A DNA stretch of 64,000 nt, from sequence record OR352951.1. The stretch is one strand, 5' to 3'. This DNA is from Escherichia phage AV121. The position numbers and the translations under genes are program-made. The notes below the pieces were generated by a model that saw only the letters and a list, made by a program, of their open reading frames with translations, ran no database searches and was not told where the DNA came from. Shown in pieces: positions 1 to 61,309 of this stretch; position 1 is the stretch's first letter, and each line of letters begins with the position of its first letter.

Positions 1-163
1 AGTTCTTCATCACAGTTAAAGAGTTTACCAGGAGAAATAAATTTCTCATCCTGGATCATTTTTAAAATATGTTCTAACGGAAGATTATATTTCTGAGCAA
101 AATAAGGAAGGCCTGATTGCCAGCTTAAACATACTCCATCAATATCAGTTAAAATAGTAGGCT
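1..163 (-). CDS. HAD-like hydrolase, N-terminal fragment (gene runs off the window start)
   Basis: ATG at 161-163; translation MKPTILTDIDGV... carries HAD motif I (DxDG); remainder off-window. Confidence 0.4.
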
Positions 164-622
164 TCATAGAGAGTCTCTTAATAGGTTTAACACATCAATA
201 AATTCAGCTTCGGTTAGTATTGTATCATCTTTTGTTAGACCACTAGCCATGCTGTGCTTCAAAACTTTTCCTTTCGAGGCTTGTAATGCATCACGAAATC
301 CCTTGTTTTGGATCGCTGCTTCAAAATATGCATTTGTGTATAATTCTTTCCACGCTGGGGAGTATCTTGAAAACGGAACTCCGAGCCAGAAGAGGGTCCC
401 ACGGTCCTGAGCTCTAGCATAAGACCTTCCAGCTTGTTGGGCGGCAAGCCCGGATAACCCAAATATACGACGTTGTTGTTCAACATTTTTCACCTTGCAC
501 CCTTGAAGGAATCCTTCAAGACCTCCAAATTGAATACCATCCATAACGAAAGGCCATTGGGCGAAATTACTTAATGCGCATGATGGCCACCTAAAATTGC
601 TTCTAATCTCTAACTCAGACAT
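164..622 (-). CDS. NADAR/YbiA-like (DUF1768-like) protein
   Basis: ORF track 164..628 begins with TTG; first ATG at 620-622. Segment LSNFAQWPFVMDGIQFGGLEGFLQGCKV resembles YbiA FSNFAAWPIKVDGKTWPTSEHYFQAQKF. Confidence 0.45.
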   Translation of the reverse strand: MSELEIRSNFRWPSCALSNFAQWPFVMDGIQFGGLEGFLQGCKVKNVEQQRRIFGLSGLAAQQAGRSYARAQDRGTLFWLGVPFSRYSPAWKELYTNAYFEAAIQNKGFRDALQASKGKVLKHSMASGLTKDDTILTEAEFIDVLNLLRDSL

Positions 623-821
623 TTTCAATGCTTATAATTTCAACATCAGCCCAATGACCATAACAAGGAAGACGAAATTCAACTGGCCAGTTAGGGTCCT
701 TTTCTAATATAATAGACTCAACTTGTGGTTCTTCGTGTTCATCAGTGTACGGATTTTTATCTGTTACTTTATATGTGACCTTAATGTACTGAATTCCAAA
801 AATCTTATTAATTATATTCAT
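615..821 (-). CDS. hypothetical protein (68 aa)
   Basis: ORF with ATG start, tightly packed in a - strand early gene array. Confidence 0.4.
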   Translation of the reverse strand: MNIINKIFGIQYIKVTYKVTDKNPYTDEHEEPQVESIILEKDPNWPVEFRLPCYGHWADVEIISIENV

Positions 822-1015
822 ACTATTTCCTTTAATCCGTAGATAGGAGATAATTCATCGCCCATACGAAGGTCTTCATTTCCATCTACCCAAGAAACAA
901 TATAAGCCTCTTTTACTTGAATACCACTCCATTTAAATGGAGGTAGAACCTTAGAAATTAATCCAGGTATACCAACTCCCTTTAATTCAACAGTTTGGCC
1001 TAAAAAGAATTTCAT
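818..1015 (-). CDS. hypothetical protein (65 aa)
   Basis: ORF with ATG start, 4-nt overlap with downstream ORF. Confidence 0.4.
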   Translation of the reverse strand: MKFFLGQTVELKGVGIPGLISKVLPPFKWSGIQVKEAYIVSWVDGNEDLRMGDELSPIYGLKEIV

Positions 1016-1302
1016 TAGAACCTCATCTGAAAACCGTGCGATTTAACATTACCGCCGCCAATATCAGAAATATTAATTTCACGCGCAATTGAAGGGTCAA
1101 TGTCAATTTCACGATTGAGTTTAGTGATAGCTAAAGTATCGCGCCCATTTACAGTACGGAACTTTAAAGGACATACTACATTAACGTAGTTTTTAATCGA
1201 TTCACTAGTAGGTTGCAAATGAGCAGGAAGGTCTTTAGGCGCCTTAGAGAAAACTACTTCGCAGAAGTTTTTACGAGTATCAAAATAAGTAGTCATAAAC
1301 AT
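1015..1302 (-). CDS. hypothetical protein (95 aa)
   Basis: Track ORF 1015..1365 starts with GTG inside a promoter; first ATG at 1300-1302 is preceded by GAGG. Confidence 0.4.
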   Translation of the reverse strand: MFMTTYFDTRKNFCEVVFSKAPKDLPAHLQPTSESIKNYVNVVCPLKFRTVNGRDTLAITKLNREIDIDPSIAREINISDIGGGNVKSHGFQMRF

Positions 1303-1350
1303 AGTATTTTCCTCAGTAAGGGGCCAAAGCCCTTTTCTTTTGTTTGTGTA

Positions 1351-1385
1351 AGATAATACTATCACAAAGGAACCGTACTGTAAAC
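1351..1385 (-). promoter_or_regulatory. T4-type early promoter (GTTTAC -35, TAtAAT-like -10)
   Basis: + strand shows gataatact...gtaaac, the reverse complement of the early promoter consensus. Confidence 0.4.
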
Positions 1386-1409
1386 AACTTTATGCAATCT
1401 TTGGAAAAT

Positions 1410-1433
1410 AAAAAAGGACTCCCGAAGGAGTCC
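1410..1433 (-). terminator. rho-independent terminator (UUCG tetraloop hairpin + U-run)
   Basis: ggactcccgaaggagtcc hairpin followed on the - strand by a T-run; same hairpin recurs downstream of soc. Confidence 0.55.
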
Positions 1434-1438
1434 TCAAC

Positions 1439-1657
1439 TTATGCTTTCTGCTTACCAAAACGAGAAGCATCATCTCGAAGAACCGCACGTGCTCGGCGCA
1501 TGATCTTCTCAACAGTTTGATTGATACGAGAGTTCGACCCACGCTTGTAACCAGCGCGTTTAGAATCACCAACTTTCTTTTCAACTGCTTTCTTTGCTTT
1601 AGCTTGTTTTGCCATTATAAAGTCTCTTTTAAATGAAAATGCAGGACTTATTGGCAT
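1439..1657 (-). CDS. small basic protein (72 aa, or 58 aa from the internal MAKQ start)
   Basis: ORF, lysine/arginine-rich; two possible ATG starts. Confidence 0.4.
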   Translation of the reverse strand: MPISPAFSFKRDFIMAKQAKAKKAVEKKVGDSKRAGYKRGSNSRINQTVEKIMRRARAVLRDDASRFGKQKA

Positions 1658-2013
1658 TGCCTGCGCAAGCCCTCAAAGGGAACATAGGTTTTTGGATATT
1701 TAACGACCAGGATAACCATAAACCCGTCATCATACCTTATAGCTCTTATCTGTTGCACACCGTTAGCTTAAAGGTTCCGGGTCCGATTACTCGAGGATAA
1801 GATATATACTGATGGATATATAGGCCTTGAGGCGTACTCCCGATTGGCCATCACCTCGGGGTAGCATGCACTTGCCGCTATAAGAATAACATTCAAGAGG
1901 TACACCGTAAAACTGCCGGGGTCTTAAAACTATAATGATTCGCAAATCATTAATCAGACAGTTCGACGGCTCCTCGTTTTAACTTCACACTAAGGTAGTG
2001 ACTCTCCAATAAA

Positions 2014-2262
2014 TTACTTCAGTGTTACCACAAAGTGACGAACTGCTTTTCGTGCAGCAGAAGCCAGTGGCTTAGCATATTTAAGTTCATCTTTTTCCTG
2101 AAGCTCAGCAGCTAATGCAGTTTGAGCAGGATTCAGATGTTTGAAATAACGCAGGATTTCAAGAGCTTCGGCTTCAACATCAATAGATGCACCATAGTTT
2201 TCGTGACCATTATTCCATGCGTTTCGTTGCAGTTCAAGAGCGTGTTGTAATTGTTTAATCAT
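2014..2262 (-). CDS. rIII: lysis-inhibition accessory protein rIII
   Basis: 82 aa, immediately downstream of gene 31 as in T4. Confidence 0.75.
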   Translation of the reverse strand: MIKQLQHALELQRNAWNNGHENYGASIDVEAEALEILRYFKHLNPAQTALAAELQEKDELKYAKPLASAARKAVRHFVVTLK

Positions 2263-2409
2263 TTAAAAATTCTCGTTAGAGATTAAAACTCGGTAGTCAC
2301 GTTCTTCTGAATTTCATCTTCTTTCGACAGATCTCTCAGTTGTAGACTACCACATAGAATTGTTCGGTTAACTTATTATTCCGACACCCAATTCATATTA
2401 TTATTTATA

Positions 2410-2745
2410 TCACTTATAAAGACACGGAATAGCTTTATAGTGACAAGTAACGAATTTTTGTTTAATTTCTTTTGGCTGCTTAAGACCCAGAGCTACAAAA
2501 GGGTGTGGAACGTTTCGAATTTGACCAACTGGAAGAGAAGTCAAATCACCAACTTCACAGAAACCTTCAGGAACATCAGGACCGACAGAGTGAACTACAC
2601 ACAGTTCAGGAACTTCACCTTGAACACGTTTACCGATAATAAGTCCTGATTCTGTAACTTCTTCATCACCGGCTTGTGCAGGTTCAGAAACTAAAATAAC
2701 ATATTCACCGACAGCACGAATTGGTAGCTGTTGTACTTCAGACAT
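2410..2745 (-). CDS. 31: co-chaperonin gp31 (GroES analogue)
   Basis: 111 aa; translation [22 protein letters not shown]... matches remembered T4 gp31. Confidence 0.85.
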
Positions 2746-2801
2746 CGTTTTTCCTTTTTGTTAACAGATGAATTAATAATAACAAATAATTCTTAAAGCA
2801 T

Positions 2802-3110
2802 TTATTTACCAATAAATTGGAGCAAATGCTCAACTTTCATACCATTAACGGAAATCAATTTGTCAATAGAAAAACCTCGCCATGCACCAAGTTCAACATC
2901 AAATACTGGAATCATATCAGTAGATTCTTTCCGAGTAGATTCAGTCAATTTACCAGTTTGCATGGTTGGCATAAAGTCCGCGTCGCGAGTACCTTTCATA
3001 ACACGAATAGTACCGTCAGACTTTTCAAAAACTACGTTTGAAACACCCATGGACAATTTAGTTTTCAAAATTTCACGAATTGCTACTTTTTGTTCAGTCG
3101 TCAGTTTCAT
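2802..3110 (-). CDS. hypothetical protein (102 aa)
   Basis: ORF between gene 31 and cd. Confidence 0.45.
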   Translation of the reverse strand: MKLTTEQKVAIREILKTKLSMGVSNVVFEKSDGTIRVMKGTRDADFMPTMQTGKLTESTRKESTDMIPVFDVELGAWRGFSIDKLISVNGMKVEHLLQFIGK

Positions 3111-53457: not shown

Positions 53458-54060
53458 TTATAGATTAAATCCTTCAAAATCAAGAGTATAGATAGTGTAT
53501 GTTGAATACTTTTTATACTCGTATCTATCCGCAATTCTAAATACACTTCCAGCTGGTATCATTACTTCTTGTTCATCTGAAACTAATTCCATATTACGAT
53601 AGCGATGGCTATCCGGAAACTTAAAACTCGGACTATATTCTTTACAACGTAAAGCTTTTATAGCATACTCCTGGAAATTAAACACCATAGGAGCTTTGAA
53701 TTCAAAAATAACTTGTGTGTTGTATTCTAATCCAGAAGCAAAATGTAGAGCTATATTTTTATCATATGAAGCTGATACTACTTTATCAAATGTAATAATA
53801 TCAATTCCTTGATTTAACACCTGTTTAGTCTCAACTGGAACACCTCTCCAAAGAGGTTTATCGTTTGGAACCAAACGAGATTTGACTATTTCATTTAACC
53901 AAGAATGATCGTCTGGTTTATTAGTAATACAATGAATTAAAAGTTCAATTTCAGATAAATTAAATCCTTCAGAAAGTAATTCTTCACGAATAGAAGCACG
54001 CACCGATGCATCCATTGATTTGATTTTAAAATCTTTTAATTGCATTGCTGAATATTTCAT
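53458..54060 (-). CDS. modA: ADP-ribosyltransferase ModA
   Basis: 200 aa; paralogous to the adjacent 207-aa ORF. Confidence 0.7.
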   Translation of the reverse strand: MKYSAMQLKDFKIKSMDASVRASIREELLSEGFNLSEIELLIHCITNKPDDHSWLNEIVKSRLVPNDKPLWRGVPVETKQVLNQGIDIITFDKVVSASYDKNIALHFASGLEYNTQVIFEFKAPMVFNFQEYAIKALRCKEYSPSFKFPDSHRYRNMELVSDEQEVMIPAGSVFRIADRYEYKKYSTYTIYTLDFEGFNL

Positions 54061-54680
54061 TCAACTACCTCAATATCATACACTTTAAATGTTCCAAATG
54101 AATCGTGTAATTTTTCTTTTGAAATAGAAGTTATTTTATACTTTCCAATTGGAATCATCCATTCTTGTTCACGTACAATCATCATTAAGTTATCAGTACG
54201 TTCTGAATCTAATCCATCAGTATCTTCATATGTATACTTAAATTCAGTATTAGGAGAAGAAAGTATAATATCGCTGATATGGTCAGAATAATTAAAAGCT
54301 TTATCAGTTTTTAAGCGAAATATTATTTCAGTGAAATACTCAACATAAGAAAAACCACATGCTGTGTGCAAACTAGTAGTAAATGAATCTACTCTGTTCG
54401 TTGAAAACACTTCTCCGACTTGTAAATCTTTAATGAGTTCTTTTGTCGATTTTGATATACCACGATATAGCTGATAAGGCGATTTAGTTAAATGCTTTTT
54501 AACGATTTTATTCAACTGCCGATGAAGAGCTTCATTCTTTTTGGCTTCCATACATTGCCAAAGAACGGATTGTTCAAAGTCAGTAAATTTTTCACAGACC
54601 TTTTTATACATATCATATTGAAAATCAACGCTTTCAGCTTTTATAGATAACTGTTCAACATCTGCAAGATTAATAATCAT
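54057..54680 (-). CDS. modB: ADP-ribosyltransferase ModB
   Basis: 207 aa; ATGA overlap with modA. Confidence 0.7.
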   Translation of the reverse strand: MIINLADVEQLSIKAESVDFQYDMYKKVCEKFTDFEQSVLWQCMEAKKNEALHRQLNKIVKKHLTKSPYQLYRGISKSTKELIKDLQVGEVFSTNRVDSFTTSLHTACGFSYVEYFTEIIFRLKTDKAFNYSDHISDIILSSPNTEFKYTYEDTDGLDSERTDNLMMIVREQEWMIPIGKYKITSISKEKLHDSFGTFKVYDIEVVE

Positions 54681-60952: not shown

Positions 60953-61309
60953 TTAACCTCTATTCATAAAAGCATTAAAAATTTGGTCATCAATAGATGG
61001 AATAGCAACCTTTTCGGCATCATTTAGCAAATCATTAATTTCATCAGATAGCATAACACATGTGCCTTTATTTCCTGTAATTGTTACTGCACAATTACGA
61101 ACGTTTTCTTTATCAAATTTTAGGTTAATATTTTCGTAGTGAAAATCCTTTAATGCCGAATATATCTTTAAAATGAAATTGTCTTTTACTACAATAAACC
61201 CAACCTCACTATTAAAACGTGGTTCATGGAAACTGTAATAAACCTTTTCATCTATAAAATCGTATGAAATTTTTTCCATTTTTAAATATGAAAATTCAGA
61301 ACTATGCAT
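60953..61309 (-). CDS. 61.2: hypothetical protein (118 aa; 61.2 position)
   Basis: ORF with ATG start. Confidence 0.45.
   Translation of the reverse strand: MHSSEFSYLKMEKISYDFIDEKVYYSFHEPRFNSEVGFIVVKDNFILKIYSALKDFHYENINLKFDKENVRNCAVTITGNKGTCVMLSDEINDLLNDAEKVAIPSIDDQIFNAFMNRG

Follow-up and report, generated by a model that had tools for sequence, protein, structure and literature searches.

Very probably, the open reading frame at positions 164-622 (minus strand) of Escherichia phage AV121 encodes AdfN (gp30.3), a core-only NADAR enzyme that undoes the marks set on DNA by DarT1, and the adjoining gene product, gp30.2, is a separate phosphatase. The frame lies near one end of a 64,000-nucleotide stretch of the phage sequence (record OR352951.1), here called the window. 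Its product is the already published AdfN (anti-DarT factor NADAR), known as T4 gp30.3; the find is correct but ordinary.

Gene 30.3 and its product

The gene is intact both in the window sequence and in the list of open reading frames, running from an ATG at 622-620 to a TGA at 166-164. An in-frame TTG at 628 offers an alternative start; the ATG is preferred because it is the start annotated in T4 and the one from which the published residues are numbered. Its main features are these:

164-622, minus strand: gene 30.3 (adfN), 152 amino acids, phage-type NADAR, predicted DNA ADP-ribosylglycohydrolase; the stop codon (164-166) is included
515-517, minus strand: codon (GAA) for the catalytic Glu36, invariant in a 49-sequence family alignment and aligned with YbiA E48
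494-496, minus strand: codon (AAG) for the catalytic Lys43, at least 90% conserved in the 49-sequence alignment and aligned with YbiA K55
254-256, minus strand: codon (CAC) for His123, invariant in the 49 sequences, in the last strand (predicted strand 120-123); a marker of the phage NADAR subfamily
167-211, minus strand: codons 138-152, the intact C-terminal helix (predicted helix 138-151) of a full-length copy

The protein is identical to T4 gp30.3 at 151 of 152 residues (99.3%), equal to it in length, and colinear with it to the stop codon. The single change is a conservative substitution, I125M, and M125 is the consensus residue in the family alignment. Direct family scans return two matches only: Pfam PF08010 (Phage_30_3), scoring 235.3 bits where the cut-off is 36 (E=2.2e-70) and covering all 138 profile positions; and phrog_652, whose function is unknown. 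The full-length PF08010 match places far above chance the motif that runs through the amino-terminal part of the protein: S18-N19-F20-A-Q-W23-P24; D28-G29; E36; Q40; and K43. The AF2 model of the protein has a pLDDT of 92.8 and a pTM of 0.88.

Like T4 gp30.3, the window copy retains E36, K43, H123 and the C-terminal helix, and with them every feature known to be needed for AdfN activity. Judged from its sequence, the I125M allele should be as active as T4 AdfN. We infer that H123 has a catalytic role.

Membership in the NADAR superfamily

Pfam keeps the phage proteins as a family of their own, PF08010, separate from PF08719 (NADAR), and homology between 30.3 and NADAR proteins is visible only at the level of profile and fold. 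For the 30.3 protein alone, a Pfam scan yields no PF08719 match at E<=1, NCBIfam and PADLOC scans for NADAR or DarG yield no match, and a single-sequence phmmer search of the PDB returns only a chance match (3rjz, E=0.6). A profile built from the 49 family sequences gives a different result. Searched against the PDB with hmmsearch, it finds E. coli YbiA (2b3w, E=0.0063) across the SNF..WP..DG..E..Q..K motif region. Aligned to YbiA with hhalign, it reaches 93.8% probability (E=1.7e-7) over 91 columns and pairs E36, Q40 and K43 of 30.3 with E48, Q52 and K55 of YbiA; extending this alignment by one residue sets H123 opposite YbiA E125. Moreover, 19 of the 49 family members match Pfam NADAR individually (best 1.5e-7).

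The 30.3 protein also has the YbiA/NADAR fold, a helical core with small flanking beta-sheets. The catalytic Glu and Lys are spaced by seven residues (E36/K43), as in C7 DarG1 (E88/K95) and PnNADAR (E43/K50). With no direct PF08719, NCBIfam or PADLOC match, membership of 30.3 rests on profile, fold and literature, and these support its place in the NADAR/YbiA superfamily of ADP-ribose-processing enzymes.

The first-pass annotation, made from the raw letters, had pointed to an SNFxxWP...DG...E..Q..K pattern in the 164-622 frame and assigned it to the YbiA/NADAR family. Frame and motif residues are as described, and the family profile bears out the assignment. Among the checks it proposed, the search with the NADAR profile divided. 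For 30.3 alone it gave no significant match, literally the outcome that the annotation had named as refuting, and it succeeded in the family-level match to YbiA; the comparison with the YbiA active site found the catalytic E36, K43 and H123 in place within a confident AF2 model. The motif-based call was thus correct although the standard Pfam NADAR model overlooks this protein.

Subfamilies differ in the last strand: phage NADARs carry His, YbiA carries Glu, and DarG1 carries Asp (PMC11125620, PMC11543638). YbiA itself, a PF08719 protein with about 20% identity to 30.3, serves riboflavin metabolism as a housekeeping N-glycosidase; 30.3 falls below the PF08719 threshold.

AdfN as an anti-DarT1 factor

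The function of this protein has been established in T4 and its relatives. Johannesman, Carlson and LeRoux used phage crosses to trace DarTG1 resistance to gene 30.3, which they renamed adfN (PMC11257639; published version PMC11825919). It is necessary, in that deletions in T2 and T4 drop plating on DarTG1 by about four logs (PMC11257639); and it is sufficient, in that T4 AdfN, expressed ectopically and alone, rescues plating of RB69 (PMC11257639). Purified AdfN strips ADP-ribose from DarT1-modified DNA (PMC11257639). Either of the substitutions E36A and K43A abolishes the function of T4 AdfN, and an RB69 frameshift allele that lacks the last 15 residues is inactive (PMC11257639).

The substrate shown is the guanine-ADP-ribose that host DarT1 places on phage DNA (PMC11257639, PMC11543638), and the preference in vivo may be for hydroxymethylated phage DNA. 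In vitro, the T4 phage NADAR is active on guanosine-ADP-ribose (PMC11125620, PMC12945103). In a HIDEN-SEQ transposon screen, insertions in 30.3/adfN were lost only with DarTG1 present (10.1101/2025.11.20.689424). The gene is otherwise dispensable on K-12, and DarTG1 sensitivity is the only loss phenotype reported (PMC11257639, 10.1101/2025.11.20.689424). At 99.3% identity, the window protein would be expected to act against DarTG1 as T4 AdfN does.

This suggests the following course of events. AdfN would be made early, from the closely packed series of small genes that extends from 30.6 to 30.2. When the infected cell has the bacterial toxin-antitoxin defence DarTG1, its toxin DarT1 would ADP-ribosylate guanine in the phage DNA and thereby block replication. 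AdfN would then cut the bond between ADP-ribose and guanine, restoring the base and freeing ADP-ribose, and replication could resume. Catalysis would proceed through E36 and K43, which presumably make the ribose and phosphate contacts, together with the subfamily-specific H123 of the last strand; the C-terminal helix would also be required. AdfN would in effect be a phage-borne "orphan antitoxin". The gp30.2 protein would be an enzyme apart, a phosphatase for nucleotides or sugar phosphates; its gene is in synteny with adfN, with probable translational coupling, but AdfN would act without gp30.2.

The closest functional parallel in the host is DarG1, the NADAR antitoxin of DarTG1 (BC4488 family; for example Geobacter lovleyi 8bat and E. 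coli C7). AdfN differs from it in three further respects: it is not encoded beside a DarT toxin and so is an orphan; it lacks the N-terminal extension and consists of the core domain only (PMC12945103); and T4 AdfN neither neutralizes DarT1 in uninfected E. coli nor rescues such cells from its toxicity (PMC11257639). Nor is there a DarTG1 operon at 30.3 in the window, where the neighbors are 30.4 and 30.2 and no PADLOC DarTG model matches. Gene 30.3 is antitoxin-like but orphan, rather than part of a DarTG1 system.

The adjoining gene 30.2

The stop codon of 30.3 overlaps the start of a second gene, of which the window holds the beginning:

164-167, minus strand: ATGA overlap of the 30.3 stop and the 30.2 start, the same in all 13 close T4-like loci
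1-167, minus strand: gene 30.2, first 55 codons, predicted HAD-fold phosphatase; the remainder lies past the window edge
132-146, minus strand: HAD motif I of gp30.2, D8-I-D10-G-V12, with D8 and D10 invariant in a 50-sequence alignment

The frame starts with an ATG at 167-165 and stays open to the window edge (55 codons, in 3-167). It reads MKPTILTDIDGVCLSW..., the visible protein opening with MKPTILTDIDGV. Over the 55 residues in view it matches the start of T4 gp30.2, a protein of 278 residues annotated as hypothetical, at every position. The T4 protein falls in phrog_420 (function unknown), and a literature search for gp30.2 found no publication.

A homologue search with the 55-residue fragment found four short proteins only, and full-length T4 gp30.2 served as the query instead. 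In the resulting 50-sequence family alignment T96 (motif II) is near-invariant, and K132 (motif III) and D150-D151 (motif IV) are invariant; these three motifs lie past the window edge and are read on relatives, the window and T4 being identical over the 55 residues. An AF2 model, computed for a relative with 97% identity, is confident over residues 1-200 and shows a HAD fold with a cap domain.

Sequence searches give weak but consistent HAD links. Among the 50 relatives, 15 match PF00702 (best 9.6e-5) and seven match NT5C (best 1.2e-4); the relative P0109 has no HAD profile match itself, and gp30.2 reaches the cut-off of no Pfam or NCBIfam model, the NCBIfam scan returning nothing relevant. 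The best PDB sequence match is 2jao. In a library of viral structures the close matches are uncharacterized T4-like proteins; the remote ones are phage 5'-nucleotidases and the phosphatase domains of polynucleotide kinases.

On the strength of a confident fold, gp30.2 is a HAD-superfamily hydrolase with four catalytic motifs, closest to the 5'(3')-deoxyribonucleotidases. Its DxD signature marks it as a predicted phosphatase; it would be Mg-dependent, with a helical C1-type cap, and its substrate is probably a nucleotide. The first-pass annotation had noticed a truncated frame with the HAD motif DIDGV at the window edge and called it a HAD-like hydrolase. The frame is real, DIDGV being residues 8-12, and the call holds: some relatives match PF00702 or NT5C, the fold is confident, and motifs I-IV are conserved.

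Compared with the NT5C-type 5'(3')-deoxyribonucleotidases (PF06941; 3bwv, 2jao, 6g2n), gp30.2 falls below every Pfam and NCBIfam cut-off and has an extra tail of about 80 residues. This C-terminal tail is disordered in the AF2 model and rich in aromatic residues and proline (Trp, Tyr and Pro in residues ~200-279 of P0109). Many family members share a conserved G-(I/V)-G-T-G-I-E-Y-L..Q-P-T near the end, which might be a docking motif; shorter members have no tail at all.

Synteny or a two-enzyme module?

The first-pass annotation suggested that 30.3 and 30.2 could be a nucleotide or ADP-ribose processing module. In such a scheme AdfN would free ADP-ribose for the HAD enzyme to act on, either directly or once it has been broken down (Nudix cleavage, for instance, would give ribose-5-phosphate); alternatively, the HAD enzyme would be needed for counter-defence in some other way. 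Several points are in keeping with this: the ATGA overlap found here and in the 13 close T4-like loci; the intact phosphatase active site of gp30.2; and reports of host systems in which enzymes that release ADP-ribose are coupled with phosphatases, HAD 5'-nucleotidases among them (PMC9503650).

The wider neighborhood argues otherwise. In a sample of 80 viral loci with AdfN homologues (37-100% identity), searched with a gp30.2 HMM, a gp30.2-type HAD gene is found near the homologue in 19. It follows adfN directly, with the same overlap, in 13 of 13 close T4-like loci, and it directly adjoins adfN in one other, L017; four more have it 0.7-1.2 kb downstream, and one has it upstream. The flanks examined (about 5 kb in most) contain no gp30.2-type HAD gene in 60 loci, and in the one remaining locus the contig ends at adfN, with the downstream side out of view. 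When the two nearest genes on each side of the homologues were clustered, no partner recurred outside the T4-like clade. As a general rule, a two-gene module is rejected on this analysis of the 80 loci.

The biochemistry points the same way. T4 AdfN alone restores RB69 plating, purified AdfN alone removes ADP-ribose from DNA (PMC11257639), and its chemistry gives guanine back directly, with no need of a phosphatase. Since adjacency is confined to T4-like relatives, no partner recurs, and AdfN is sufficient for a reaction that requires no phosphatase, the two genes look like neighbors whose synteny is conserved in a packed early transcription unit, rather than like an obligate two-enzyme system. 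The module proposal accordingly does not hold up, and a joint pathway for the two enzymes is improbable. Strict ATGA coupling in the close relatives nevertheless leaves some room for a functional link. There is, likewise, a small chance that gp30.2 is a second player in an ADP-ribose or nucleotide conflict, either by clearing phosphorylated breakdown products of ADP-ribose or through deoxyribonucleotidase activity that would shape nucleotide pools or work against a nucleotide-based defence.

Other substrates for AdfN

Two other substrates for AdfN can be weighed against the DarT1 adducts on DNA. One is soluble: AdfN would mainly destroy immune signals or metabolites derived from ADP-ribose, such as cADPR variants or intermediates of the riboflavin pathway. 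YbiA is an N-glycosidase on riboflavin intermediates, and a 2022 survey predicted that phage NADARs favor low-molecular-weight derivatives of ADP-ribose (PMC9503650). However, the residue in the last strand is His in AdfN as against Glu in YbiA, and experiments show de-ADP-ribosylation of DNA and counter-defence against DarTG1 (PMC11257639, 10.1101/2025.11.20.689424). A mainly soluble substrate is very unlikely, though AdfN might act on a soluble one in addition.

The other is the ADP-ribosylation that the phage itself sets on host proteins or RNA with its transferases Alt, ModA and ModB; AdfN would reverse or edit these marks. The first-pass annotation noted that the same genome encodes ModA and ModB, and both were located in the window on the minus strand: ModA at 53461-54060 and ModB at 54060-54680, adjacent and sharing one base at 54060. 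(Both are 96-97% identical to their T4 counterparts, and srd and dda follow.) In T4, Alt lies about 3 kb downstream of 30.3, and the 2022 survey describes the T4-like NADARs as early genes encoded along with ADP-ribosyltransferases (PMC9503650). Yet ModA and ModB are 53 kb distant from 30.3 and act on targets of another kind; DarTG1 sensitivity is all that has been reported on loss of adfN; and the published activities of the T4 NADAR are all on guanosine-linked ADP-ribose in nucleic acid (PMC11125620, PMC12945103, PMC11257639). The papers examined gave no evidence of NADARs acting on the protein targets of ModA or ModB, and contained no trial of a NADAR on protein arginine-ADP-ribose. This proposal is very unlikely. 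The tie drawn earlier between AdfN and ModA/ModB gives way to the published substrate, the guanine adducts of host DarT1 on phage DNA (PMC11257639, PMC11543638); indeed, published experiments supersede the functional speculation on 30.3 as a whole.

The surrounding locus

A T4-like gene order (Tequatrovirus), gene 30 - rIII - 31, fills the first 3 kb of the window; every gene there is read from the minus strand, and the DNA is 97-98% identical to T4 and to hundreds of relatives. With ModA/ModB, srd and dda further on, the window spans the map origin of T4, its ends falling at roughly 128 kb and 23 kb on the T4 map. Further features of this region are:

2410-2745, minus strand: gp31
2014-2262, minus strand: rIII
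615-622, minus strand: 8-nt overlap of the 30.4 stop (615-617) and the 30.3 start (620-622), from the open reading frame list and the T4 annotation
259-486, minus strand: internal out-of-frame frame 30.3', 75 amino acids, annotated in T4 and open here

Genes 30.6, 30.5, 30.4, 30.3 and 30.2 are packed, with stops overlapping starts, and 30.3 occupies the same slot between 30.4 and 30.2 as in T4. The frame 30.3' encodes 74-75 residues in eight of 11 close relatives, is cut to 53 residues in the other three, and is lost in distant ones. Its standing as a real gene is doubtful for these reasons.

Relative to T4, the locus lacks genes 30.7 and 30.8. At the junction 1332/1333 (1303-1440), 782 bp of T4 (129476-130257) are absent. 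The best-matching GenBank phage records all have this segment, but one IMG/VR genome, L007 (IMGVR_UViG_2974742932_000001), lacks it too, and the deletion is thus a natural polymorphism. Between gene 30.9 and rIII (1734-1888), about 155 bp have no T4 counterpart, and phage G4498 has small open reading frames at the equivalent place.

Just past gene 30.9 lies a strong terminator-like hairpin (1414-1435, minus strand; GAGGACTCC-TTCG-GGAGTCCTT and a T run). After the hairpin comes a promoter-like site, TTTACA-17-TAGTAT with a TG (1356-1384, minus strand), which the 30.7/30.8 deletion has placed directly before 30.6. This site may drive the 30.6-30.2 unit, including adfN. No firm claim is made for it, since promoter-like sites are not enriched over shuffled sequence (6 versus 6.5). 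An Rfam search of window positions 1-3000 found no RNA family.

At the other end of the window, the slot of T4 61.2 (adfA, the other anti-DarT1 factor) holds only a 118-residue frame (60953-61309, minus strand). Compared with T4 gp61.2 over 144 residues, this region is 31% identical and contains an in-frame stop; full identity is limited to the last 14 residues. Unlike T4, the phage thus lacks a full-length adfA of the canonical kind, and AdfN is probably its only answer to DarT1.

Implications

In AdfN, a lytic phage carries what is becoming a textbook case of an orphan antitoxin-like enzyme that undoes DNA ADP-ribosylation by DarTG1; as a discovery, its presence here matters little. At this locus gp30.2 stands out as a well-conserved, predicted phosphatase with a confident fold and an intact active site, and if it did take part in an ADP-ribose or nucleotide conflict, 30.3 and 30.2 would work as one unit in the Tevenvirinae. 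For AV121 itself, the sequence indicates an intact and presumably active adfN in a phage that lacks a canonical adfA.
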